Shown here piece by piece: positions 33,115 through 64,000 of a stretch of DNA of 64,000 nt. The stretch is from Candidatus Niyogibacteria bacterium (GTDB lineage: Bacteria > Patescibacteriota > Minisyncoccia > JACROR01): contig JACPLO010000001.1 of the NCBI GenBank assembly GCA_016186495.1, positions 11,907 through 75,906 of the forward strand. Direction: 5' to 3'. The notes beneath the pieces are model-generated. The model was given only the letters and a program-made list of their open reading frames with translations. It made no database searches and had not been told where the DNA came from. Positions within the stretch are counted from its first letter, which is position 1. Every line of letters starts with the position of its first letter. A program made the translations under genes and the position numbers.

Positions 33115-34110
33115 ATGATTGATGAAAAAGCAAGAAAAAATCCGGAATTATCGGTGATTATTCCCGTTTATAATTCCAGAAAAACGATTAATCAATGCCT
33201 GAACGCGGTTTTTTCGTCTGATTTTAAAGAATTTGAAGTGATTATGGTTGATGATTGTTCAACCGATGATACCTTAGAAATGGCAAAAAAATATCCTTGT
33301 AAAGTTATTAAGCTTAAAAGAAACTCCGGGCCTTCATCGGCGAGAAATCAAGGAGCAACGGCGGCCAGCGCGGAGATATTATTTTTTATTGATTCCGATG
33401 TCATTTTAAACAGTAACGCGCTTCGCGAAGTATTTAATTTTTACAAAGATGAGAAAATTCACGCGGCAATCGGGATGTACGCGAAAGAATCGGCGAATAA
33501 CGGCTTTTTCCATGAATATATGGCTCTTTGGAAATATTATACTTGGATGTATCCTCAAGCTCCGGAATATTTTAGTTTTTTTATCGCCTCCTGCGGTTCA
33601 ATGCGCCGGAAAGTTTTTTTTGAATTGAACGGTTTTAACACCGAGTATCGGGGAACCGATGTTGAGGATTATGAGCTTGGCTATCGCTTAAGGGAAAAAT
33701 ATAAAATTTATTTTAATCCAAAAATTCAGGGCAAACATTATCATCCGGATTTTATGACCTGCGCGAGAAATTATTATAAAAGAGCGTCATTATGGTTTAA
33801 TCTTTTTATGAAGCAAAATTCGTTTGATAACGGCGCCGCGTCAGCTTCGCGAGGCGTCTCGTCGCTGATCGGATTTTTAATTCCGGTTTTAATATTATTC
33901 GCAATCTTCTTTCCGTTGTTATGGATAGCGGTTGTTTCTTTAAGCGTGATTTTTGTGATAATGAATATGAAATTCTATCTGCTGGCTTTTGAAGAAAAAG
34001 GATTATGGTTTATGATGTTTTCAATCGCCGCCAATTTGATTTTGTCAATTTTTATCAGCGCGGGCGTTTTTAAATCAATTATTTCAATATCTTTTTTAAA
34101 ATGGATCTAA
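33115..34110 (+). CDS. glycosyltransferase family 2 with C-terminal TM helices
   Basis: LSVIIPVYNSRKT...VDDCSTDDT...DSD. Confidence 0.75.
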   Translation: MIDEKARKNPELSVIIPVYNSRKTINQCLNAVFSSDFKEFEVIMVDDCSTDDTLEMAKKYPCKVIKLKRNSGPSSARNQGATAASAEILFFIDSDVILNSNALREVFNFYKDEKIHAAIGMYAKESANNGFFHEYMALWKYYTWMYPQAPEYFSFFIASCGSMRRKVFFELNGFNTEYRGTDVEDYELGYRLREKYKIYFNPKIQGKHYHPDFMTCARNYYKRASLWFNLFMKQNSFDNGAASASRGVSSLIGFLIPVLILFAIFFPLLWIAVVSLSVIFVIMNMKFYLLAFEEKGLWFMMFSIAANLILSIFISAGVFKSIISISFLKWI

Positions 34111-35174
34111 AAAAATATTATCACATCGGAAAAGTGTTTTTTAATAAGATGCCGTCTTATCTTATATTTTTTGTGACAGCCAGATGCAATTCCCGCTGCC
34201 GAATGTGTTTTTATTGGAAAAATATTGAAAATCCCCAAAAAGAATTAAGTTTGGAAGAGATAAAAAAGATATCAAAAGGATTCGGGCATTTGCAGTATCT
34301 GACGGTATCAGGAGGAGAGCCTTTTTTGAGAACAGATTTATCGGAAATTATTCAAACATTTGTCAAACAAAATAATTTGCAGTTTGTCAGTATTCCGACC
34401 AACGGATTATTGCCGGATAGAATAGCCAGCGTTTCGGAAGATATGTTTAAGAAATGTCCGAATACGTTTTTTAGAATTGCGTTGTCGCTTGACGGTATTG
34501 GCCAGGATCACGACGAGATCAGAGGAATTCCCGGTAATTTTGAAAAATTAAAAGAGTCTTACGCGCGATTGAATGAATTAAGGAAAAAGTACGGTAATTT
34601 TAACATTGATTCAACAACGGTTTTTACCAATTTCAATCATCGCAAGATTAAAGGTATATTTGAATGGGTGGATAAAAATATAAATATTGACAATCATGTG
34701 CTTCTTTTGGCGCGCGGTAACGCGAGGGAATCTATTGCTAAGCAAGTGTCAATTGACGAATATGCTGAAATGGCGGATTATGTTGAACAAAAAACATTTG
34801 CCAAATCGCCAAGGAAAAAGCAATTTTATCTGAAAGCCTTGAAAGCGGTTAAATTGGTGATGAGGGATGTGATTGTCAGGACGGTTAAAGAAAAAAAGAT
34901 GATCCTGCCGTGCGTGGCGGGAAAGAAAATGGTGATAATCAGTGAGACGGGCAAAGTGTATCCCTGCGAACTTTTGCCCAAGGAAATGGGGGATTTGCGG
35001 AAGAATAATTATGATATAAAAAAGATACTTTTTTCGCAGGCGGGAAAAGATATCAAGCGGCAGATTAAAGAAACTAAATGCCATTGTACTTTTGAATGTG
35101 CGATCCAAAATAATATTTTTTATAATCCTTTGGCTTACCCTTCAATTATTAAAAAACTTTTTCGTTTAAAATGA
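34101..35174 (+). CDS. radical SAM protein (possible SPASM-type C-terminus)
   Basis: 357 aa; CxxxCxxC cluster motif TARCNSRCRMCFYW; C-terminal Cys-rich CHCTFEC. Confidence 0.7.
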   Translation: MDLKKYYHIGKVFFNKMPSYLIFFVTARCNSRCRMCFYWKNIENPQKELSLEEIKKISKGFGHLQYLTVSGGEPFLRTDLSEIIQTFVKQNNLQFVSIPTNGLLPDRIASVSEDMFKKCPNTFFRIALSLDGIGQDHDEIRGIPGNFEKLKESYARLNELRKKYGNFNIDSTTVFTNFNHRKIKGIFEWVDKNINIDNHVLLLARGNARESIAKQVSIDEYAEMADYVEQKTFAKSPRKKQFYLKALKAVKLVMRDVIVRTVKEKKMILPCVAGKKMVIISETGKVYPCELLPKEMGDLRKNNYDIKKILFSQAGKDIKRQIKETKCHCTFECAIQNNIFYNPLAYPSIIKKLFRLK

Positions 35175-36136
35175 ATATGGCCTTAAAACCCGAAGCTAAA
35201 ATATCAATCGTGATTCCGGTCTATAACGAAGAAAATTCGGTGGCTGAATTGCACCGGGAAATAGTGGAAGTTTTTCAAGGCCTGAAACACGATTATGAAA
35301 TTATTTTTATTGATGATGGTTCAACGGATAAGACGTTGGCTGAACTGAAAAAACTTGTTTTCGTCCGGATTATTTCTTTTGCCAGAAATTTTGGAAAATC
35401 CCAAGCTTTGCAAGCCGGTTTTGATGAAGCGCAGGGAGACTATATTATTACGCTTGACGGCGATTTGCAGGATGATCCCCATGAAATTCCTAAATTTTTG
35501 GAAAAATTAGAGGGCGGATTTGACCTTGTTTGCGGTTGGAAACAAAAAAGAGCGGATTCCTTATCGCGGAGGTTTGCTTCTAAAATTGCCAACAGTATAG
35601 CTCGAAAAATGACCGGCATAGATATTCATGATATGAATTGCTGCTTTAAAATTTATAAAAAAGAAACGGCTAAAAGCCTTTCTCTCTACGGCGATATGCA
35701 TCGCTATATTCCGTCTATTGTTTCGGGAATGGGGTTTTTGGTCGGCGAAACGGCAATCAATCATCGTCCGCGCCGCTACGGAGATTCAAAGTACGGATTT
35801 GGCCGGTTTGCCAGCAGTATTTTTGATTTTATTACTTTGATTTTTTTGCGGCGATTCACTGATCGGCCCATGCATTTTTTCGGCTTGATAGGAATTATTC
35901 TTTCTTCGGCCGGAGTGATTATTTTAGCGTTTTTAAGCTGGCGGAAAATTTTTTACGGGCTTTTGCTCGCCGGCCGGCCATCTTTGCTTTTAGGCATTTT
36001 AATGGTGATTGTCGGTTTGCAATTGTTTTTATTAGGTTTCATCAGCGAATTAATAATCCGGCAATCTTCATCGGAAAAAAGAAATTTTGTCGTTAAAGAA
36101 AAAATAATCAGGAATCAGCGTGAAAATATTTCTTGA
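35171..36136 (+). CDS. glycosyltransferase family 2, polyprenyl-phosphate glycosyltransferase (GtrB/ArnC-like)
   Basis: 321 aa; ISIVIPVYNEENS...FIDDGSTDKT...LDGDLQDDP; two C-terminal TM helices. Confidence 0.8.
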   Translation: MNMALKPEAKISIVIPVYNEENSVAELHREIVEVFQGLKHDYEIIFIDDGSTDKTLAELKKLVFVRIISFARNFGKSQALQAGFDEAQGDYIITLDGDLQDDPHEIPKFLEKLEGGFDLVCGWKQKRADSLSRRFASKIANSIARKMTGIDIHDMNCCFKIYKKETAKSLSLYGDMHRYIPSIVSGMGFLVGETAINHRPRRYGDSKYGFGRFASSIFDFITLIFLRRFTDRPMHFFGLIGIILSSAGVIILAFLSWRKIFYGLLLAGRPSLLLGILMVIVGLQLFLLGFISELIIRQSSSEKRNFVVKEKIIRNQRENIS

Positions 36137-37481
36137 CGTTATAAAAAAACGAAAAAGCGTCCGCAGTTTTCTCGCGAAAACCGTAGATCTTGCTTTAATT
36201 AAAGAAATAATCGCTCTCGCCACTTACGCTCCCACCAGCTGCAATCAGCAATTGTGGAATTTTATCGTTATTGACGATGCTCTAACGAAAGAAAAACTGA
36301 TTAAAGAAGCCGCCGCCAACACTTTAATAAGAAGAGCGCCGGTTGTTATTGCGGTTACTTATGACGGCTGGAATTATAAAGAAGCGCTTCAGGGGGCAAG
36401 TTTAGCCGTGGGACATATTTTATTGGCGGCGGAATATTACGGCCTCGGCGCTTTGCCGATTAATAGTTACGGGGCGGATTGCAAAGTCAAAAAAATTTTA
36501 AACATTCCCGTTAAAGAAAAAATTTGCTGTTTTATCGCTCTGGGGCATCCTGATGAGCGGGCGCAGCAATCTCCTCTGGTTTCCCGAAGGCCGGTTGAAG
36601 AAGTATTTCATCAAGGAAAATTTCGGGATAATAATGCTCCTCCTTTTACTTATGATCCTAATGATTGGAGTTTGGAAAATTTGCGCAATCATCAGAAATA
36701 TTATTGCCGGAAAACTTTTTTAGGAAAAGAAATGGATATAATGAACCAACGGGAAAGGGAATTGATAAAAAATACTCTCGGCGATATAAAAAATAATTTG
36801 CTTGATTTATTTTCTTACGATGGAAGTTTTTTAAAAGAATTTCCTCTTCTGCCGATTATCGCCATGGATTTGACTCAAGAAACATCCGCTTATACCAGAG
36901 CGGCCGTCCGGTTGTTTGCCAAAAATAAATTATTAAAAGCGGCTCATATTATTTATGATGATAAAAAAAAAGCATTTACGGAAAATCAACAGGCCGCCAT
37001 CAGCCTTATTTATAAATTAGAGAGAATATCCGACGCCTTAAAGGAAAATTTATTCATTCAAGCGTACAATACTTTGCGAAAAGAAGGAGAATTTATTATT
37101 ATCGCGAGGAAATCAAACATATTTTTGTCTTTTTTCTTTTTTGCCGTAAGATTAATCTTCGGCCAGGATGTCAGAAAAACGGGAATTTACAGCTTTTTCG
37201 GGCCGTATCAGCCCGTCAGTTTGCGTAAAACAAAACAACAATTAAAGAAAGCGGGCTTCCGGGATATTTCATGGTCCGGATATTTTTTCATTCCTGTATT
37301 TTATGAACAAATCTATCAGATGATCAAGCAATATATCCGCAGCGGAGGCACAAGTTATTTGCATCGGGAGCCGAAGGAAGACGCGATAAGCAAATTTCTT
37401 TCTTTTATTATGAAAATTCAAGGTCTGCGTAAATTTGGTTTATTGGGATCGGTCGCGGTAATAATATGCCGCAAGCAATAA
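36120..37481 (+). CDS. nitroreductase-family domain fused to a C-terminal methyltransferase-like region
   Basis: 453 aa; N-terminal nitroreductase fold (KRKSVRSF...APTSCNQQLWNFIVIDD); C-terminal ~200 aa resembles degenerate class I MTase. Confidence 0.55.
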   Translation: MKIFLDVIKKRKSVRSFLAKTVDLALIKEIIALATYAPTSCNQQLWNFIVIDDALTKEKLIKEAAANTLIRRAPVVIAVTYDGWNYKEALQGASLAVGHILLAAEYYGLGALPINSYGADCKVKKILNIPVKEKICCFIALGHPDERAQQSPLVSRRPVEEVFHQGKFRDNNAPPFTYDPNDWSLENLRNHQKYYCRKTFLGKEMDIMNQRERELIKNTLGDIKNNLLDLFSYDGSFLKEFPLLPIIAMDLTQETSAYTRAAVRLFAKNKLLKAAHIIYDDKKKAFTENQQAAISLIYKLERISDALKENLFIQAYNTLRKEGEFIIIARKSNIFLSFFFFAVRLIFGQDVRKTGIYSFFGPYQPVSLRKTKQQLKKAGFRDISWSGYFFIPVFYEQIYQMIKQYIRSGGTSYLHREPKEDAISKFLSFIMKIQGLRKFGLLGSVAVIICRKQ

Positions 37482-39097
37482 AAAATAACGTATTTTTACG
37501 TTCGGTTATTTGTGAAATTCCGCGTTTATTGGGCCAGTTAAATCGAAATCCATCTTCCCGTTCCTACGGATCTTTTGATCGGGCTTATTGGCATTATCGG
37601 ACGAATGATATAAGCTCCGCCCGTTATCAAGAGGCGGTTTTAACTTTAACGCTGCTTTATTCTTCGCCGTTTGAGGGGAATATTTATTATCAGGATAAAA
37701 ATATTTTGGAGTGGATTAACGCGGCTTTAAATTTTTCTTGCTCTATTCAAAATAAAGACGGTTCTTTTGATGAGTGGTATCCGTATGAGGGATCGTTTGT
37801 GGCCACTTCTTTTGTGGTTGCCGCCTTGGCCAAGGTTTTATCGCTTTTAGGAGAAGATAATATTCCTTCTTATAAAATCATCCGCGCGAGGCTTGAACGG
37901 GCGGCTGATTGGATTATTTGCCATGAAGAAAGTTTGGTTTTAAATCAAACCGCGGGAAGCGCTCTGGCTTTGCTGAATGTTTTTCTTTTAAACGGAGATA
38001 TTTTTTACAAGCAAGCGGCCGAAAAAAAAATTCAATTTATTCTTAAAAGTCAAACTAAAGAAGGATGGTGGAATGAATATGGCGGTCCGGACGCGGGTTA
38101 TTTGTCGCTGACGGTTGATTATCTGGTTAAATATTATCGTCAAACTGACGATCAAGATGTTTTATCAGCCGTTAAAAACGCGATATCGTTTTTTATTCAT
38201 TTTCTTCATCCTAATTTTACCGTTGGCGGAGAATATATGTCCCGCAATACCGAGTATTTGATTCCTTCCGGTTTTGCTTATTTTTCATCCTTTGACGAGA
38301 CGGCAAAAATTATCACTGCTTTCAGCGCGGCTTCGTTGGAGTTGAAGCAAGGAGTTAATCCGCAAAATCTTGATGACCGGTATCTTTGTTACATTCTTTA
38401 CAATTGGCTTGAAGCCGGCCTGATTTTTAACAATGAAAATTTTCTTAAGGAAAGCGAAGTTTATTTCCAAGAAAGGAGATTTGACGTATTTTTTAAGGAA
38501 GCAGGCATAAGGGTTATCCAAAATAAAAAATATTATTTTGTCGTTAATCTGCGAAAAGGCGGAGTTTTCAGGATATATTCAAAAGGGGCGGCTTATTTTG
38601 ATTCCGCCCTGGAAGTTGATTTTTCGGGAAAGGTTTACATTGCCAACGCACTTGATAAAAAAAATGAAATTGAATCAGGGCCGGATTTTTTGCGGGTGCG
38701 CGGCGCGTTGAAACCTGTTCAAGAACCGTTGCTGCGCGCTTTTACGATGATTGCGTTCAAGGCCTTTCAAATCACTTTAGGGAGAATGAACGTTTTTCAG
38801 AAATTGATGAAGAAATTTTTAAGAAAAAAGATGATTATTTACGAAAATTCAACTTCTTTGATTTTTGAGAGGTTATTGAAGATTTCTCATAACAATATTA
38901 AAATAAAAGATGTTCTTCATAAAGAAATATCCGGCAAGCATCTTCGTTTCGGTTTGAAATCTTCATACGCGTTTATTCCCAGCTCTAAATATTTTACGGT
39001 TCAGGAATTGGAGGCTGGTTCTCTGAAACCTTCCGAAGAAAAATGTTTTATTGAAAAAGGCAAAACTGTTGTCAGCCGGACTTTCTTTTTTGATTAA
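37466..39097 (+). CDS. hypothetical protein (soluble, ~543 aa)
   Basis: No recognisable catalytic motif; embedded in the glycan locus. Confidence 0.4.
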   Translation: MPQAIKNNVFLRSVICEIPRLLGQLNRNPSSRSYGSFDRAYWHYRTNDISSARYQEAVLTLTLLYSSPFEGNIYYQDKNILEWINAALNFSCSIQNKDGSFDEWYPYEGSFVATSFVVAALAKVLSLLGEDNIPSYKIIRARLERAADWIICHEESLVLNQTAGSALALLNVFLLNGDIFYKQAAEKKIQFILKSQTKEGWWNEYGGPDAGYLSLTVDYLVKYYRQTDDQDVLSAVKNAISFFIHFLHPNFTVGGEYMSRNTEYLIPSGFAYFSSFDETAKIITAFSAASLELKQGVNPQNLDDRYLCYILYNWLEAGLIFNNENFLKESEVYFQERRFDVFFKEAGIRVIQNKKYYFVVNLRKGGVFRIYSKGAAYFDSALEVDFSGKVYIANALDKKNEIESGPDFLRVRGALKPVQEPLLRAFTMIAFKAFQITLGRMNVFQKLMKKFLRKKMIIYENSTSLIFERLLKISHNNIKIKDVLHKEISGKHLRFGLKSSYAFIPSSKYFTVQELEAGSLKPSEEKCFIEKGKTVVSRTFFFD

Positions 39098-39103
39098 AAT
39101 AAT

Positions 39104-39400
39104 ATGTTTGGTTTTGATATAAATTTTTGGCTTATCTTGGGCTTTTTTGGGCAATTCCTGTTTTTTATGAGATTTTTTGTCCAATGGATCGCTTCCGAAA
39201 AAAGAAGGGAAAGTTTTTTCCCGGTTGCTTTTTGGTATTTTAGCATCGGCGGCGGCGTTATTCTTTTAATTTACGCCGTGTCCATTAAAGATCCGGTTTT
39301 TATTTTAGGGCAGGGCGCCGGATTGTTAATTTACATCAGAAATTTAGTTTTGATTCGGAAAAAAAATATTTTAAATAAATCTCACGCTCCGCAAATATGA
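39104..39400 (+). CDS. lipid-A-disaccharide synthase N-terminal (LAB_N) domain membrane protein
   Basis: 98 aa, 3 TM; RFFVQWIASEK...FWYFSIGGGVILLIYAVSIKDPVFILGQGAGLLIYIRNL matches LAB_N pattern as recalled. Confidence 0.5.
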   Translation: MFGFDINFWLILGFFGQFLFFMRFFVQWIASEKRRESFFPVAFWYFSIGGGVILLIYAVSIKDPVFILGQGAGLLIYIRNLVLIRKKNILNKSHAPQI

Positions 39401-41166
39401 ATTTATTAAGTTTAAAAAACATATTTAGCGCGGATTTTTTGGAGAAATACGGCCTAGTTTTTATTCTCGCGCTTTTTGTCGCGTTTGGCATAGTCGGAAT
39501 TTTTTATAATTATTCAATTTCCAATACGATTGGCGAAGAGTCTATTTTGATGGCGGCCACCTTAAAAATGATCGCCGAATTATCATTAAGGCCGAATTAT
39601 CCGACTATGTATCATATGCCGTTCGGGACATATTTTTATTTGCCGTTTTTTATTGTTTTGCTTGTTTTTTTAAGGCTTTCCGGCTTATTTGCCAGCTTAG
39701 AGGAATTGAAAGTTTTTGGAATAACAGATTATGAAAAATTATTGCCGATGGCAAGATTTATTTCAATATTTTTAGGAGTAGCCTCGGTATATATGGTTTA
39801 TAGAATTTGTGAAAAATTATTCAATAATAAATTTATTTCTCTAGTCGCTTCATTTTTGCTTGCCACCAATCTAATATTCGTGCAGATGTCCCATTTCGGC
39901 AAAGTTTGGATTATCCAGATATTTATTGTTCTGTTAACTTTTTATTTTATTGTTGCTTTATATCAAAAAGAACGGCCCGGATTTAAGGATTATTTTTATC
40001 CCGCGCTTTTGACGGCAATTTCTTTCGGCGTCCATTTTATCGGCATATTGATTTATCTGCCATTTTTAACGGCGCATTATTTGAAAAATAAAGAAAAGAA
40101 ATTTAGGGAGATTTTTATAACAAACAGGAATTTTTGGCTCTCTAATTTAGTGATCGCGATTATATTATTGTTTATTTTTTATTTAAACCCTTATGGATTT
40201 GCCAATTACGGCCTGCGATCCGTGGCGGCGGCCGCGGCTATTATTCAGGAGAGCGCCGGCGCCAGCGGCGGTTATGATTTTTGGTTAATGTTCAGCAATT
40301 ACGGAAAAGTATTGTTTGAAAACGGTCCGGCTCTGACCATAATATTTGTTTTCAGTTTAATTCCCTTATTTTTGCGAAGGAGAGATTTATTTTTTATATT
40401 CAACTCTTTTATATTCGGCTACTATATTATTATAGGCCCGATCCTCGGCCCGACAATCGGAATTAACGGCCGAGGATTTTATATCTCGCCTATTATACCG
40501 TTTATGGCTGTTGTGTCCGCTTTTGGTATTTATGTGTTTTATAAAAGTGATTTATTAGGCAAAAGGATAAATCCCGTTAGAAATATTATTTCTAACGGGA
40601 TAAAGATTTTCTTACTGGCTTTGGTTTTTCTTTTTTCCGCGTACATTCCGATTTTATGGAATTATAAGCTGATTCAGCCCAGCGCCTGGATTTTGGCTAA
40701 AGATTGGATTTATAATAATCTACCGTCGGGAGTAAGCATAATCAATCTCAATACCGAGCTTCCCATTAATGAAAATAAGGAGTCTGTGGAAGATACCAGA
40801 GTTTATACGCCGAATTTTTTTACAAAAAAACAGGATTATTTGTCGTCAGTCGGCGATAATCAATATCCCAAGCCCAATTATTACGTTTTAAAGTTCGCCG
40901 ATTATAGAGAGGGTATTCCTAAGGCCGTTTTAGATAGAGGTTTTGATTATATGGTTATAGAATGGTGGGATCAGGCGAGATATGAAAAAACTATGCAAGA
41001 TGTCCGTCAACTTAATTTAGAAGAAATAAATTTAATTAAAATATTTCCGGCTGGCGCCTCTTCCACTACCTTAAATATGGATATGGAAAATATAAAGAAT
41101 CCCCTTATTAATTTGCGAAAAATAGACCATACGGGACCGGTTATCGCTATTTATAAATTAAAATAA
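39397..41166 (+). CDS. GT-C fold membrane glycosyltransferase-like protein (ArnT/PMT_2-like)
   Basis: 589 aa, >10 TM; loop motif IGEESILMAATLKMIAE; contains in-frame palindrome at 40571-40601. Confidence 0.45.
   Translation: MNLLSLKNIFSADFLEKYGLVFILALFVAFGIVGIFYNYSISNTIGEESILMAATLKMIAELSLRPNYPTMYHMPFGTYFYLPFFIVLLVFLRLSGLFASLEELKVFGITDYEKLLPMARFISIFLGVASVYMVYRICEKLFNNKFISLVASFLLATNLIFVQMSHFGKVWIIQIFIVLLTFYFIVALYQKERPGFKDYFYPALLTAISFGVHFIGILIYLPFLTAHYLKNKEKKFREIFITNRNFWLSNLVIAIILLFIFYLNPYGFANYGLRSVAAAAAIIQESAGASGGYDFWLMFSNYGKVLFENGPALTIIFVFSLIPLFLRRRDLFFIFNSFIFGYYIIIGPILGPTIGINGRGFYISPIIPFMAVVSAFGIYVFYKSDLLGKRINPVRNIISNGIKIFLLALVFLFSAYIPILWNYKLIQPSAWILAKDWIYNNLPSGVSIINLNTELPINENKESVEDTRVYTPNFFTKKQDYLSSVGDNQYPKPNYYVLKFADYREGIPKAVLDRGFDYMVIEWWDQARYEKTMQDVRQLNLEEINLIKIFPAGASSTTLNMDMENIKNPLINLRKIDHTGPVIAIYKLK
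40571..40601. repeat. 31-bp perfect palindrome ATCCCGTTAGAAATA-T-TATTTCTAACGGGAT inside CDS
   Basis: 15-bp arms with single-base centre; translated as NPVRNIISNGI; minimal member of CCCGTTAGAA family. Confidence 0.8.
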
Positions 41167-48672: not shown

Positions 48673-49917
48673 TTATACGATTCTTGGTTTAGGCAGAGGA
48701 ATAATAAATTTACCTTTATAGCCTTGCGTTCTTAATTTTTGCGTGAGTTCTTCTCCGATATGCCAAGCAAGGATAAGCGCATATTCGGGTTGGTCTTCAA
48801 AAAGTTGCTTTTCCTCAATTACCGGTATATGCGTTCCCGGAGTAAAAAGGCCGATTTTTGGCGACCCTTTTTTTTCACAGATATAATCCAGTATATCTTT
48901 ATTTATTTTTGCAAACCCCATCAGTATATTTGATCGTGCGGAAGAACCGATAGCCGCGATCCGGCCTTTTTTCTTACAATTAATTAGTAAAGATAAGAGA
49001 TCATATTTTGCAGTTTTTGCTTGTTCTGAGAATTTTTTTAATCTTTTGATATCATATAGCCCTGCTTTTTTCTCAGCCGTAATTAATTCAACTACGCGCT
49101 TGCCGGGCGTTCGTTTTCCTTTCATGGCATATGCCCGGATTGATCCTCCGGCTGCCGGTATTATTTCAGCGTCTATCAAAGTAAAGCCAGCCCGTGAAAA
49201 TAGATATGCCAGAGGTTTTAAGGAATAAAAGCGAAGATGTTCGTGATAAATACAATCAAAAGCGCCTTTTTCAATAGTATTTAGAAGGTATTGAGATTCG
49301 GAAACAAAAACACCTTTGTTGCTTAAAAGATGCTTAACGCCTTGAAGCAGATCAAAGAGCTCGTTAACATGGGCAAAGGCGTTTGTCATAGTAATAATTT
49401 TTGCCTTTCCTTTTTTTATGACTATGTTTTTTGCCACCTCTTTGTTAAAGAATTTTTGAATCGTAGGGATACCGTTTTTTATAGCGATTTTTGCAACATT
49501 AGTAGGTTCAACCCCCAGTACCCGCATGCCATTTTTTTTAAATCCTTTTAGAAGAGTTCCGTCATTTGAACCTATATCAACAATAAGATCATCGCTTTTT
49601 AATTTATAATTTTTGATTAATAATTCCGCCAAAGAGCAGAAATTTTTTATAAGCATATTGGTCATTCCTGTCTGATAAGGATAAGCTTTATGGAAGGCGG
49701 TTTGAGGTTCAACAATGTAATCAAGTTGCAGTAAGCCGCATTTTGCGCAACGGCAAAAATTAAGCGGATAGGTCATTTCCGATTTTTGAAGTTCTTCTTT
49801 GCTAAGGTAAGAAGAAACAAGCGCTTGATGGCCAAGAGAAAGAATATTTTCCAGTTTGTTGTCAGAGCATATTTGGCACTTTTTTATTGCGCCGATTAAA
49901 GCAGTTTGTTTTTTCAT
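48673..49917 (-). CDS. NDP-sugar C-methyltransferase-like (TylCIII/Methyltransf_13-12-14 architecture)
   Basis: 414 aa; N-terminal zinc ribbon CQIC...CAKCGLLQL, central SAM fold DIGSNDGTLL, C-terminal C-MT domain. Confidence 0.6.
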   Translation of the reverse strand: MKKQTALIGAIKKCQICSDNKLENILSLGHQALVSSYLSKEELQKSEMTYPLNFCRCAKCGLLQLDYIVEPQTAFHKAYPYQTGMTNMLIKNFCSLAELLIKNYKLKSDDLIVDIGSNDGTLLKGFKKNGMRVLGVEPTNVAKIAIKNGIPTIQKFFNKEVAKNIVIKKGKAKIITMTNAFAHVNELFDLLQGVKHLLSNKGVFVSESQYLLNTIEKGAFDCIYHEHLRFYSLKPLAYLFSRAGFTLIDAEIIPAAGGSIRAYAMKGKRTPGKRVVELITAEKKAGLYDIKRLKKFSEQAKTAKYDLLSLLINCKKKGRIAAIGSSARSNILMGFAKINKDILDYICEKKGSPKIGLFTPGTHIPVIEEKQLFEDQPEYALILAWHIGEELTQKLRTQGYKGKFIIPLPKPRIV

Positions 49918-54767: not shown

Positions 54768-56792
54768 TTAAATTGGTTTAAATTCAGCCCAAAACGGACT
54801 AAACCCTTTAGCATCATAATCGGTGAATATCTTGCTGACGACAAAAAAAAGATCATCGCCGTACAGATTTTTACCGTTTTTAATAATTTCAGCCACTTTT
54901 TGCTTGTTATAAACGACTTCATAACATACAAATCCGGCGTAAGATGTTAATGGTTTTACGCCTTTGTTTTTGTACCAGGCGCTTACATCATAAGCCAGAC
55001 TTAGGTTGTTTTTGGTTGGTTCGTTCCGCACAACGGCGTTTATATCCCGGCCAACCATTGCCCATTTTTTAGCAGAGTCAAGGGAGTTTTTTACTTCCGC
55101 GGTGATTTTATGCGCGCCAACTTTTGCGATAACATCATACGCCAGCTCAAAAGTTTCCGCGCATCTTTCAAGAATAATTTTCGTTTTATGCTTTCTTATA
55201 AGATTGTCCCCCAGTTTTCCGGAAAGCAATTTTTCATAATTTTCCGATTTTGAAAAATACTCATAAAGTTCTTTTTTGGAATCCCAAAGTTCTTCTTTAG
55301 TTTCCCGGATGTATTCATAATAGGCCGCAGACAGTTCAGTATCGCCTGATTTGGCTATTTTCCAAAAACGGATCAAATAGTCATAGGTGTTGATTTCCAA
55401 TTCTTTGAGGTGGCGATGGATGATGTCAAATTGGTCGTGGGATAATAAGGCTGAAATCAGTCCGAAACCGCGGCATTCCAAATATTCCTCAAAAGACAAA
55501 GTATTCGTTTCAATGCAGACTTCTTCGGTTTCAAAGCACTTTTGCCCCGCGTAAGCGCCAAATTGCCTTGGGATGAGGCGGTATTTTGTTTTCATCGCGT
55601 AAGCTTTTCTGGATTCTTGGGAGGCAAGCGGAGTTCCTTTCAGCATCATCGTGGTATAGGGCACGATATGGTCCACTTTTGCGTTTAAAAATGTTTTGAT
55701 TCCTTCAAAAAAAGAAGATTTTGTTTCTTTTGGCATTGGCACAATAAGTTCGGAGCCGAATGGCAGGCCGAGTTCTTGAATGCGGCGTCCGAATGCCAGA
55801 TATTTTTCCAGTGAAATATTTTGTCTTTTAATGATTTCTAATGTTTCCGGATTGGTTGATTGTAAGGATCCTCCGATCGGCATCTTGTTTTGCAGAATGG
55901 AGGATATGCGAAGCACTCTGTTATGGTTGGTTTTGCTGGTTGTGACATCAAAAGCGTTAGGCCAGCCAAACATGTTTTGTAAATCGCGAATATGCTTTGC
56001 TATTTCTTCGTCCCGAGGGAGTATTCCGAAATTGGAATCGTATATCGCTAACAGCGTATTGGAATATGGCTGCATTTTTCGCGCAATATAGTTAAGCTCC
56101 GTTTTTATTCTTTCTATGCTGAATTTTGCGATAGGAGAATACCAAGCCTGCGATGCCTTGCAAAAGGCGCAGGTAAACGGGCATCCTTTGGCGGTCAGCA
56201 AAGAAGGAGCATAATGTCCGTCAAACCATTTATCCATCATGCCGCTTAAATAAGGGGATGGTATTTGATCCAGGTCCATTATGCGCGGAATCGGTCCACC
56301 GACAATTAAATTGCCGGCCGCGCTAATTGACATTATGCCTTTTTGCGCGCGGTTTTTTAAGTCGGGAAGTTTTTCTCTTGCGATGATTTTTCGGATTAAT
56401 TCCGTAAAAGCGATTTCACCCTCTTGATAGGCATAGAAATCAATATTTTTTCTGCTTGAAAGATAATCTTCGCATTCTTTGTTTTCGCGCGGGAATTCCG
56501 GTCCGCCGGCAATGCAAAAGATATTCGGATTAATTTTTTTCGCATAGCCGAAAACTAAATGAGACAGTTCCGCGTTCCAGCAGTAATTGGAGAGCGCGAT
56601 TATATCCGGATGCCATGCCTTTATATCTTTTAAGATGGCGTTAGCATCAACATAAAAATGAAGTTCAATATCATTATGATCAGGCACATTAGCCAGCATA
56701 TATGAAGCGATGTAGCTTATGCCAAGCGGCATAAAACTTGAATGTATGCCGGCGGTTTTGTGTTTAAGGTCGCCCATTGCGATTTTCAGCAT
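54768..56792 (-). CDS. B12-binding domain radical SAM protein
   Basis: 674 aa; N-terminal cobalamin-binding-like domain, CxxxCxxC motif KGCPFTCAFCKAS. Confidence 0.65.
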   Translation of the reverse strand: MLKIAMGDLKHKTAGIHSSFMPLGISYIASYMLANVPDHNDIELHFYVDANAILKDIKAWHPDIIALSNYCWNAELSHLVFGYAKKINPNIFCIAGGPEFPRENKECEDYLSSRKNIDFYAYQEGEIAFTELIRKIIAREKLPDLKNRAQKGIMSISAAGNLIVGGPIPRIMDLDQIPSPYLSGMMDKWFDGHYAPSLLTAKGCPFTCAFCKASQAWYSPIAKFSIERIKTELNYIARKMQPYSNTLLAIYDSNFGILPRDEEIAKHIRDLQNMFGWPNAFDVTTSKTNHNRVLRISSILQNKMPIGGSLQSTNPETLEIIKRQNISLEKYLAFGRRIQELGLPFGSELIVPMPKETKSSFFEGIKTFLNAKVDHIVPYTTMMLKGTPLASQESRKAYAMKTKYRLIPRQFGAYAGQKCFETEEVCIETNTLSFEEYLECRGFGLISALLSHDQFDIIHRHLKELEINTYDYLIRFWKIAKSGDTELSAAYYEYIRETKEELWDSKKELYEYFSKSENYEKLLSGKLGDNLIRKHKTKIILERCAETFELAYDVIAKVGAHKITAEVKNSLDSAKKWAMVGRDINAVVRNEPTKNNLSLAYDVSAWYKNKGVKPLTSYAGFVCYEVVYNKQKVAEIIKNGKNLYGDDLFFVVSKIFTDYDAKGFSPFWAEFKPI

Positions 56793-59793: not shown

Positions 59794-60768
59794 ATGAATT
59801 TACGAAGAAGCAATAAATTTCGGGTGTCTTTCCCTTCCGGTAAATTTTATCTTAATTTTAAGACGGCGATTATCACCGGCGTTTGTCGGTCTGGAAAAAC
59901 CACTTTAGGCAATTTGCTTGCCACTTATAAAAATGTGGAACACGCAGAAGAGCCGTGGACTCTTAATTTATTGCCCACCATGATAAAAATGGGCGTTATC
60001 AAGAGAAAAATAGGAGCAGAAATGTTTAACGCTTATTTGCATGAATTGATGGTTCATACGGTGCTTTTGCGCCAAGCTAATTTTCGGCCCGGAGATTTAA
60101 GCGCTATTTGGACAAAAAAGCCGGAGAAAGAAATTTTATCAAGGCTGATAAATCTTAAAACTCGCGCGGATGTTCTTAATTTCGTAAAAAAAAATAAATC
60201 TGTCTTTCTTTTGATTATGCCGGAATCTCTGCTTTTTAATTTACCGGCTATATTTGATGCTGTGCCGGACGCCAAAATTATTCACGTGGTTAGAAAAGGA
60301 ACGGACGTGGCGCATCTTTTAAGCGGCAAAGAATGGCTTTCTGACAAACAACTTACCCGGCCTCCGCACGCGCGAATTTATTACGAGACGATACGCCGAA
60401 GTTATCCGTTTTATCTGCCCTGTTGGATAAAATTAAAAGACGCAGAACGATTTATCGCATCCTCTGAATATGAGAGAGGACTTTTATATTGGTGCTCGCT
60501 TATGGAAAATATGATTGAATCATTGAAAAAATCGGATAATAAAAAGCGATGCATGACTGTAAAATTTGAAGATCTTGTGGCAAATCCCGGAAAGACAACG
60601 GAAAAGGCGGCCGCGTTTTTAAATGTAAAGCCGTCATCAATGACCGGACCGATTTTGCGCGAGGTGAAAAATTATAAAAATATCCGCGCAGAAGTCCCTG
60701 TTTTGCCGGAAGAGCTGATTGCGAGAGTTAAAAAAATATATAAACATTTTGGATATGAGTGGAGTTAA
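59794..60768 (+). CDS. sulfotransferase-family protein
   Basis: 324 aa; PAPS 5'-PSB-like ITGVCRSGKTTLGNLL and 3'-PB-like IHVVRKGTDVAHLLSG. Confidence 0.5.
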   Translation: MNLRRSNKFRVSFPSGKFYLNFKTAIITGVCRSGKTTLGNLLATYKNVEHAEEPWTLNLLPTMIKMGVIKRKIGAEMFNAYLHELMVHTVLLRQANFRPGDLSAIWTKKPEKEILSRLINLKTRADVLNFVKKNKSVFLLIMPESLLFNLPAIFDAVPDAKIIHVVRKGTDVAHLLSGKEWLSDKQLTRPPHARIYYETIRRSYPFYLPCWIKLKDAERFIASSEYERGLLYWCSLMENMIESLKKSDNKKRCMTVKFEDLVANPGKTTEKAAAFLNVKPSSMTGPILREVKNYKNIRAEVPVLPEELIARVKKIYKHFGYEWS

Positions 60769-61699
60769 AAAATATTTTGAAGATAACGCTGAACAATGGA
60801 TATTAAACGGCTATGGCGACGACGGATACAATTATCCCACGGCTTTTCATCGCGTAAGGATAGTTTCGCGGTTTATTTCTTCTTTGAATAAAAAGAAGCT
60901 AAAGATTATTGATCTTGCCTGCGGCGGGGGAGATTTAGCTTGTCGTTTGGCGAGCGACGGACACATAGTGACCGGCATTGATCAGTCTCAAAAAATGCTG
61001 GATATCGCGGAAAGCAGGCGAAAGGAATTGCCAAAGAAAATTCAGAATAATATCAAATTTTTGCGGGGAGAAATAGGAAATAAACTTGATTTGGGCGGGC
61101 AATTTGACGCGGTTGCCGCTATGGGCATTATCGGCTATTTGCCGAATGATAAAATTATTTTTAATGCCGCGAATAGCCTGCTGAAATCGGGCGGCTATTT
61201 TTTAATTTCTTGCCGGAATCGTTTATTTAATATGGTAAGCATCGGCAAACGAACGGAAAAAGAGGTTAAAAACAAAGGAGCTATAAAACTTATAAGAGAA
61301 ATCGGCGCGCTCTACGATAAAGTGTCCGCTAAAGACGCGGAAAGATTTGTTAAAAATTTTAAAAAAATAGCCGCTGGTTTGCCGGAGAAGATGTCTTTTG
61401 ACAAAAAATCAATGCTTTCTCCAGCGGAAAAATACGCTCCCTATATTTCAACTTTAGATGTCGAGCCCAGACAAAATATGCCGGATGAATTAAAGAAGAC
61501 CGCTTTAAAGTGCGGATTTAAACATCGCGCATATTACGGCGTGCATCCGCATTTGATGGATCCTAATTTAAATAAAATGCTTCCGCCCCGGCTTTTTAAT
61601 AAAATATCGGGATGTCTGGAAGCGCTGGAGCATTTGCCGATGAGTCTCGCGTGGAGCTCGGTTTTTATCGGCGTGTTTCAGAAGAGCAAGCGCCGCTAA
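60755..61699 (+). CDS. class I SAM-dependent methyltransferase
   Basis: Motif I IIDLACGGGDLACRL; start ATG 60755 overlapping upstream gene end (ORF opens at 60719). Confidence 0.6.
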   Translation: MSGVKKYFEDNAEQWILNGYGDDGYNYPTAFHRVRIVSRFISSLNKKKLKIIDLACGGGDLACRLASDGHIVTGIDQSQKMLDIAESRRKELPKKIQNNIKFLRGEIGNKLDLGGQFDAVAAMGIIGYLPNDKIIFNAANSLLKSGGYFLISCRNRLFNMVSIGKRTEKEVKNKGAIKLIREIGALYDKVSAKDAERFVKNFKKIAAGLPEKMSFDKKSMLSPAEKYAPYISTLDVEPRQNMPDELKKTALKCGFKHRAYYGVHPHLMDPNLNKMLPPRLFNKISGCLEALEHLPMSLAWSSVFIGVFQKSKRR

Positions 61700-61707
61700 A
61701 CCGTTTT

Positions 61708-62574
61708 TCATATTTCTTTTTCGCAGTATAAATTAACAAATTGGTTATACGCGGTTCCGTCGCGCGATTCAGGAATAAATTTTTCGTAATCGCTGTCATT
61801 GTCGGATTTAATTTTTTCCATTGCATCAGGCAGAACGGCGAAGATTTCAAAACCGTACGCCGAAATTTTTTTCAGAAAATCAAGCGGATTTAAGGTTTTT
61901 TTTATCCAAGCCGGAGCAAACTCAAGCACCATTTTTATATTTTGATTTTTATTCAGTAAATTCTGCATGCCGGCAATGGCTTTAGGTTCTCCTCCTTCAA
62001 TATCCATTTTTATGATATTGATCCGGTTTATTTTTTCGCGCGCGATTATATTGTCCAAAGTGTCGGCTGGGACGCTTATTTTTCTCATTTTAAAATTCAA
62101 AGGTTGGTCGGGAAGCGTGCTGTGGCAGCCGGCCTTCTCTTCGCAGTGATAAAAATCAATTTCTCCGGCATGATCGGATATTGCCAGCCGGCAGATTTTT
62201 ATATTTTTGAGATGTTTCGTGTTTTTTTGCAATAATTCAAAATTTTCCGGGTCCGCTTCAAACGCGTAAACCACGCCGTTTTTTCCGGCTAACCGAGAGA
62301 ATATGCGCGTAAAATATCCGACATGCGCTCCGATGTCCACGATTACCATTCCGGGCTTGATTATTTTTTTAAACAAAGCGGCAGTCTCCGGCTCGTATAA
62401 TTCCCAAAGCATATCCAGTTTCCATCGCCTGATATAGTTCTTGGGAAATGAATAATGCCTGGAATACGCGTAAATATTTGTAATTGTATCTAATATTTTA
62501 TAAATTAATTTATCTAACCACGGCGAGCGTATAAATTTTCTATAGATTTTTCTAATAATTGAAACTATTGCCAT
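61708..62574 (-). CDS. FkbM-family methyltransferase
   Basis: 288 aa; VVDIGAHVGYFT and FkbM-like core. Confidence 0.65.
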   Translation of the reverse strand: MAIVSIIRKIYRKFIRSPWLDKLIYKILDTITNIYAYSRHYSFPKNYIRRWKLDMLWELYEPETAALFKKIIKPGMVIVDIGAHVGYFTRIFSRLAGKNGVVYAFEADPENFELLQKNTKHLKNIKICRLAISDHAGEIDFYHCEEKAGCHSTLPDQPLNFKMRKISVPADTLDNIIAREKINRINIIKMDIEGGEPKAIAGMQNLLNKNQNIKMVLEFAPAWIKKTLNPLDFLKKISAYGFEIFAVLPDAMEKIKSDNDSDYEKFIPESRDGTAYNQFVNLYCEKEI

Positions 62575-62619
62575 CTTATTTTAAGATTAAATTATTGCCA
62601 TAAATTTGTCTATTTTTAA

Positions 62620-64000
62620 ATGAAAAACGAAATTAAAAAAAATACTTCCAATAAAATAAAATTGGCCTTTTTTCTGGGCAGGAGGTTTACTTATATCGGG
62701 CACACAATCGCCATACTGTTAAAAGAAAGGCATGGATTGAATAATTTTTGCGCGTACGTGGCGATGCGTTCGGGATTTAATTTTTTAAAATCACAAAAGG
62801 ATATTCAATATAATCAGCTATTTCTGGCAGAAGATGTTTTCGCAAAATACAAGAATGAAAAGATTGATTTAGATTATATCAAATCACTTGAGCATGAATT
62901 TGGTTTGCCCAGTCTGTGGCCGTATATAGTGCTGGACAGAGTGCTAATTTCTAATTTATTTCTTCGTGCCTATCCTTCGGATACTCCAAAATATTCTCAT
63001 GAAGATATGCTTAAGATTTTTCAGGTGATCGCAAGAACAGTCATTGAATTTTTTGATAAAGAAAAGCCTAATTTTATACTTTTTTCGGCAATTACCGATC
63101 TGGGCACATTATTGCTATACGAGGCAGCGAAAAAGAGAAATATCAAAACTCTTTTTATCTGTTCTGTAAGGATAGATAATTTTTACATTCTTAGCGAGCG
63201 ATATGATAATTATAGCGACTTGAATGAATTATTTATAAAGATGCGCCAGAACATGGATAGTTTGGAAAATCAGCAGTATAAAAAAATGGCTAAGAATTTT
63301 TTAATAAGTTTTCAAAATAAACCGACATATTATGTAGAGAAGTCCAAAGCCGCTTCTTATTTTTTGGAAGATTATGCGAGTCTTATTTATCATTTTCGTT
63401 TTTTGTCGCCTTTTAGGATTGGCCAAACAATTCGTTGGTTTTTAAAAACACATTATGACTATTTCATAAATAAGGCCGGGGATAGAGATGATTTTACCAC
63501 TAAAAAGCCGTGGTGGGAGGCGTGGGATAAATTAGTCAGGAAAATCAGGGTGTTGGTTGGTTACGGAGATTTGTATGACAAGGAAAAAGACGGCGAAGAT
63601 TACGCATATTTTGCTCTTCATCTTGAACCTGAATCTCTTCCGACTCTAGTGGCGCCTTTCTATACGGATCAAAAATGGCTGATTAAGCAGATTGCTCGTT
63701 CGTTGCCTGTTCATTATAAGTTATATGTTAAAGATCATTCTAAAATGCTGGGTCTTCGCACGCGTTCGTATTATAAAGAGCTCAAAAAAAATCCTAATGT
63801 TAAACTGATTGATCCCGCGGTTTCCAGTTTTGAACTTATCAAAAAAAGCAAACTTGTTATTAATATTGTTGGCACTGCCAGTTTGGAAGCGGCTCTAATG
63901 AAAAAGCCCGTCATTATGTTCGGCAATATCTTTTTTGATAAACTGTCTATGGTTAAAATTTGCCATAATATTCAAGATTTGCCATCTTTGATTAAGAGCC
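62620..64000 (+). CDS. capsule-polysaccharide-biosynthesis-like protein (KpsS/LpsZ Capsule_synth-like), 5' portion; runs off window end
   Basis: ATG 62620, open to window end (not in ORF track because no stop); FALHLEPESLP and LVINIVGTASLEAALMKKPVIMFGN resemble Capsule_synth family. Confidence 0.4.
   Translation, partial: MKNEIKKNTSNKIKLAFFLGRRFTYIGHTIAILLKERHGLNNFCAYVAMRSGFNFLKSQKDIQYNQLFLAEDVFAKYKNEKIDLDYIKSLEHEFGLPSLWPYIVLDRVLISNLFLRAYPSDTPKYSHEDMLKIFQVIARTVIEFFDKEKPNFILFSAITDLGTLLLYEAAKKRNIKTLFICSVRIDNFYILSERYDNYSDLNELFIKMRQNMDSLENQQYKKMAKNFLISFQNKPTYYVEKSKAASYFLEDYASLIYHFRFLSPFRIGQTIRWFLKTHYDYFINKAGDRDDFTTKKPWWEAWDKLVRKIRVLVGYGDLYDKEKDGEDYAYFALHLEPESLPTLVAPFYTDQKWLIKQIARSLPVHYKLYVKDHSKMLGLRTRSYYKELKKNPNVKLIDPAVSSFELIKKSKLVINIVGTASLEAALMKKPVIMFGNIFFDKLSMVKICHNIQDLPSLIKS

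Follow-up and report, generated by a model that had tools for sequence, protein, structure and literature searches.

The window analysed here, a stretch of 64,000 nucleotides from a contig of an uncultured Candidatus Niyogibacteria bacterium, had been singled out in a preliminary description for three kinds of putative tailoring enzyme: a radical SAM enzyme, a nitroreductase fusion protein and a cobalamin-binding (B12) radical SAM protein. A Pfam domain search confirmed each of the open reading frames and domains named there. The genes for these enzymes all fall within one 40-kb run of glycan genes. The radical SAM enzyme and the nitroreductase fusion do sit inside GT2 operons, as described, since GT2 glycosyltransferase genes at 33115-34110 and 35171-36136 flank them with overlapping start and stop codons.

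The first of these GT2 genes (33115-34110, plus strand; Pfam Glycos_transf_2, 118 bits) encodes a protein of 331 residues with a C-terminal hydrophobic membrane region, its hydrophobic segments spanning residues 243-328, and with weak similarity to GT21, CruG and HpnB. The radical SAM gene follows (34101-35174, plus strand, 357 aa), and its product scores 69.3 bits against the Pfam Radical_SAM model (cutoff 29.5 bits) and 21.5 bits, exactly at the cutoff, against SPASM. The CxxxCxxC motif and cysteine-rich C-terminus reported earlier are both real: the motif C29-x3-C33-x2-C36 is invariant among 35 homologues, as are C271, C289, C327 and C329, and a fifth C-terminal cysteine, C333, is kept in at least 90% of them. 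The resulting pattern of five cysteines, CX12GX4C...CXCX3C, differs both from the 7-Cys SPASM motif and from the BtrN pattern, and this twitch-like (partial SPASM) cluster of cysteines probably holds one auxiliary Fe-S cluster. Structural neighbours of the enzyme include the sugar- or nucleotide-acting radical SAM proteins of the twitch/SPASM type, namely BlsE (a cytosylglucuronate decarboxylase), viperin, MoaA, DesII and BtrN, which match it at only 30-55 bits. To our knowledge, none of these five forms a constant gene pair with a glycosyltransferase or is fused to one.

The radical SAM enzyme is a member of an uncharacterised family that is coupled to glycosyltransferases. The preliminary description had suggested looking for it in related glycan loci, and sugar genes are indeed present at 70 of 80 homologous loci, where the typical neighbours are GT4, DegT, SDR and GT-C genes. 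A homologue of the first GT2 lies within 6 kb of the radical SAM gene at 56 of the 80 loci, in many phyla, and at 48 it is directly adjacent on the same strand (upstream in 38, downstream in 10); this GT2 is a conserved partner of the enzyme. In 13 of the best 150 among 2685 representatives of the family, a full-length GT2 and a full-length radical SAM enzyme are fused in the order of the separate genes; two more carry a different partner, a GT26 enzyme of the WecG/TagA kind in one and a GT4-like enzyme in the other. In Elusimicrobia, the radical SAM gene is found without the GT2, in an operon with NDP-hexose 4,6-dehydratase and SDR genes.

These properties bear on the idea that the radical SAM proteins serve the maturation of a cofactor, like AhbD/NirJ for heme or MoaA, or of a peptide (RiPP), and are merely adjacent to glycan genes, an idea to which we give almost no credence. 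Curated-family scores are all far under their cutoffs (for the enzyme at 34101-35174, AhbD 95 bits against 500 and MoaA 61 against 231), the adjacency to one type of GT2 is kept from phylum to phylum, and the fused proteins contain both enzymes at full length. The genes neighbouring the flagged radical SAM enzymes include none for heme or Moco, and a search near GT2-radical SAM pairs for a conserved small ORF turned up only antisense shadows of the genes. A housekeeping role was therefore rejected; given that no curated cofactor family is reached, that sugar genes abound at the homologous loci and that fusions to glycosyltransferases occur, these are glycan-pathway enzymes, as had been proposed.

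The substrates, order of steps and chemistry that we infer for this first module, and for the two described below, are as follows. The membrane-anchored GT2 and the radical SAM enzyme would act as one unit, in which the latter would split SAM to generate a 5'-deoxyadenosyl radical and abstract hydrogen from the sugar handled by its partner. This could happen immediately before transfer, on the NDP-sugar donor, or immediately afterwards, on the sugar linked to lipid or glycan. The product would be a sugar beyond the reach of NAD-dependent enzymes, for example a keto or epimerised, decarboxylated or rearranged one.

A related scheme would have the same pair alter the head group of a membrane lipid. 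It has been proposed that a glycosyltransferase attaches a sugar to a lipid and that a radical SAM enzyme then rearranges the sugar, with ring contraction by HpnJ in hopanoids and by Cds in the formation of calditol in Sulfolobus (PMC13459092). By analogy with HpnI/HpnK/HpnJ and Cds, a sugar attached by the GT2 to a lipid alcohol would be turned into a carbocyclic cyclitol by radical SAM enzymes. The membrane region of the GT2 and its weak resemblance to GT21, CruG and HpnB fit this scheme, and so does a B12 radical SAM protein of about 485 aa that is also encoded at 40 of 73 GT2-radical SAM loci. Many related loci thus combine a GT2, a non-B12 and a B12 radical SAM enzyme, as do HpnI, HpnH and HpnJ, and for both of the ~485-aa proteins tested (L001 and L081) the best NCBIfam match is HpnJ, at 213-219 bits against a cutoff of 577. 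However, no HpnJ-like gene lies beside the pair in the window, HpnH matches the radical SAM enzyme at 50 bits (cutoff 225), and the HpnH, HpnJ and HpnB scores are all far under their cutoffs. Neither hopanoid nor GDGT genes were seen among the window's annotated ORFs. The glycan character of the usual neighbours also argues against a lipid product, as do the fusions to transferases of polymer assembly (WecG/TagA and GT4-like). We regard the lipid scheme as quite unlikely, and favour action on sugars destined for a glycan.

The second module begins with the other GT2 (35171-36136, plus strand, 321 aa), which is of the ArnC/GtrB polyprenyl-phosphate type and has a C-terminal putative transmembrane region at residues 233-297. 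Over residues 5-302 it aligns end to end with the ArnC structure 9hwj (167 bits), and it matches GtrB (5ekp) at 136 bits; its score of 180 bits against the NCBIfam ArnC model, under the cutoff of 529, indicates that it is not an ArnC orthologue. Next comes the protein previously called a nitroreductase-MTase-like fusion (36120-37481, plus strand), an apt name for an FMN nitroreductase domain (residues 1 to ~170) joined to a domain with a class I methyltransferase fold (~210-453). SAM motif I of the latter is degenerate and lacks GxGxG, so the domain may have no capacity to bind SAM. The third gene (37466-39097, plus strand) encodes an uncharacterised 543-aa protein, the N-terminal half of which is a probable (alpha/alpha)6-toroid, judging from weak matches to toroid families (Pec_lyase in 9 of 28 family members, complement TED at E 2e-4, and SHC). 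It is followed by a gene for a small LAB_N membrane protein (39104-39400, plus strand, 98 aa; Pfam LAB_N, 106.8 bits) and one for a polytopic GT-C of the PMT_2/ArnT-like kind (39397-41166, plus strand, 589 aa; Pfam PMT_2, 37 bits) with several predicted hydrophobic segments.

No protein is more closely tied to the nitroreductase fusion than the toroid protein, whose gene comes immediately after that of the fusion in 28 of 37 loci, and an ArnC-like GT2 is directly upstream in 25 of the 42 loci with enough flank; the complete triple of GT2, fusion and toroid protein occurs in only 17 of the 34 loci with both flanks. The LAB_N gene recurs in the same order in three other loci (L083, L092 and L094), and in six (L083, L090, L095, L108, L109 and L120) the cassette has a GT-C-like gene after it. 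Only at L083, where the order is GT2, fusion, toroid protein, LAB_N and a polytopic membrane protein (576 aa, no Pfam match), was a LAB_N/GT-C arrangement identical to that of the window seen in detail. These linkages weigh against a generic NAD(P)H-dependent reductase that detoxifies nitro compounds or quinones and has no connection with the glycan. The N-terminal domain does resemble such an enzyme in its typical nitroreductase fold and in the conservation of the residues that bind FMN. Nevertheless, the two-domain architecture of ~450 aa is conserved over its full length and the gene overlaps its neighbours at start and stop codons, so that we consider detoxification a very improbable role.

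With a GT-C and a polyprenyl-phosphate GT2 of the ArnC type as its companions, the nitroreductase fusion is more likely to act on a sugar linked to lipid than on a soluble nucleotide sugar. The ArnC-like GT2 would charge polyprenyl phosphate with a sugar, which the fusion and the toroid protein would alter at the cytoplasmic face; LAB_N would serve as the flippase for the lipid-linked sugar, and the GT-C, presumably the user of the polyprenyl-phosphate sugar, would move this sugar to a surface acceptor. ArnD and mycobacterial DprE1/DprE2 are precedents for altering a sugar while it is on a lipid carrier. The module resembles the Arn (ArnC, ArnD, ArnE/F, ArnT) and Gtr systems in that a single operon encodes a GT2 of ArnC/GtrB architecture, a GT-C and a small membrane protein, and at L081 genes for an ArnA-N-like formyltransferase and an ArnD-like deacetylase adjoin the cassette. 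It differs in having LAB_N in place of ArnE/F or GtrA, and in its two modifying proteins, the FMN nitroreductase/methyltransferase-fold fusion and the alpha/alpha toroid protein, which have no known counterpart in the Arn, Gtr or DprE systems.

The third module centres on the 674-aa B12 radical SAM protein (54768-56792, minus strand; Pfam B12-binding, 36.3 bits, and Radical_SAM, 36.8 bits). Among proteins of known structure it matches TokK (152.6 bits over residues 61-443) and CysS (136 bits), and its best NCBIfam match is the KedN5 subfamily, at 156 bits far below the cutoff of 700. It shares with TokK/ThnK, CysS and KedN5 a length of ~650-680 aa and an architecture of B12-binding domain, radical SAM core and long C-terminal domain, and on these similarities it is a putative cobalamin-dependent C-methyltransferase of this type. 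The earlier expectation of such chemistry thus holds as far as homology to cobalamin-dependent C-methylases goes, but the closest relatives are not the GenK and Fom3 that had been named. The known TokK/CysS/KedN5-type methylases act in antibiotic pathways (carbapenem, cystobactamid and kedarcidin). In contrast, the family of the window's enzyme was found in nonulosonic-acid clusters in all seven other genomes looked up (L085-L089, L149 and L150), and in one homologue a CMP-sugar synthetase domain (CTP_transf_3) is part of the same polypeptide.

A putative nonulosonic-acid region also begins about 3 kb from the B12 radical SAM gene in the window (59794-64000, plus strand). Its Pfam-matched genes are for a sulfotransferase-like protein (59794-60768), a methyltransferase (60719-61699), an FkbM methyltransferase (61708-62574, minus strand) and a Capsule_synth-like protein that is cut by the window end (62620 onward). 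Sequence from the same genome (L148, identical to the window over 3000 overlapping bases) shows that glycan genes go on for at least 8 kb past the window end, with a second B12 radical SAM protein (686 aa), a GT2, a radical SAM protein (296 aa), a PseF-like cytidylyltransferase, NeuB (437 bits; cutoff 400) and a NeuC-like epimerase. Because this cluster lies just beyond the window, the B12 radical SAM gene does not close the locus, contrary to what had been supposed. The NeuB, PseF-like and NeuC-like genes are 12-17 kb from it; it is opposite in strand to the nonulosonic-acid genes, and an SPFH gene and an IS element lie between. The enzyme would act as a methylase on a nonulosonic-acid derivative from the adjacent NeuB cluster.

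The window also encodes a SAM-dependent sugar C-methyltransferase of the TylCIII type (48673-49917, minus strand; Pfam Methyltransf_14, 140 bits, and Methyltransf_13, 58 bits), as previously reported, with FdtA, 4,6-dehydratase, DegT and hexapeptide acyltransferase genes as neighbours. It is part of a dTDP-6-deoxyhexose set that stands apart from the three modules. In the reading suggested by the preliminary description, all three flagged enzymes would instead tailor the soluble nucleotide sugars of one glycan, with the B12 protein carrying out GenK/Fom3-type C-methylation or epimerisation on this 6-deoxyhexose. Their common gene run, the homology of the B12 protein to C-methylases and the NDP-sugar operon of Elusimicrobia agree with this. 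Against it, the B12 family tracks nonulosonic-acid clusters elsewhere and lies near one here, and the nitroreductase fusion keeps company with genes for lipid-linked sugars. Moreover, a radical SAM model match lies within 7 kb of the nitroreductase fusion at only 3 of 58 fusion loci, just one of the three being a full-strength homologue (L136, 277 bits), and the toroid gene is within 6 kb of the radical SAM gene at 7 of 80 radical SAM loci, directly downstream in 4. The second cassette is mostly found without the radical SAM enzyme, and this rarity of co-occurrence argues that the two belong to different conserved cassettes. A single set acting on one glycan is therefore unlikely.

The flagged enzymes thus belong to three independently and widely conserved, uncharacterised sugar-modifying modules rather than to one tailoring set, and the domain identities, folds, synteny and fusions that define them were observed directly. 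As a whole, the explanation given here, with the substrates, step order and chemistry proposed for each module, is one to which we give somewhat better than even chances: the operon at 33.1-41.2 kb would join two modules, both for membrane-associated glycan assembly, and the third would stand at the window's end. The most striking of the three is the first, with a radical SAM family that is nearly always encoded beside, or fused to, a glycosyltransferase.

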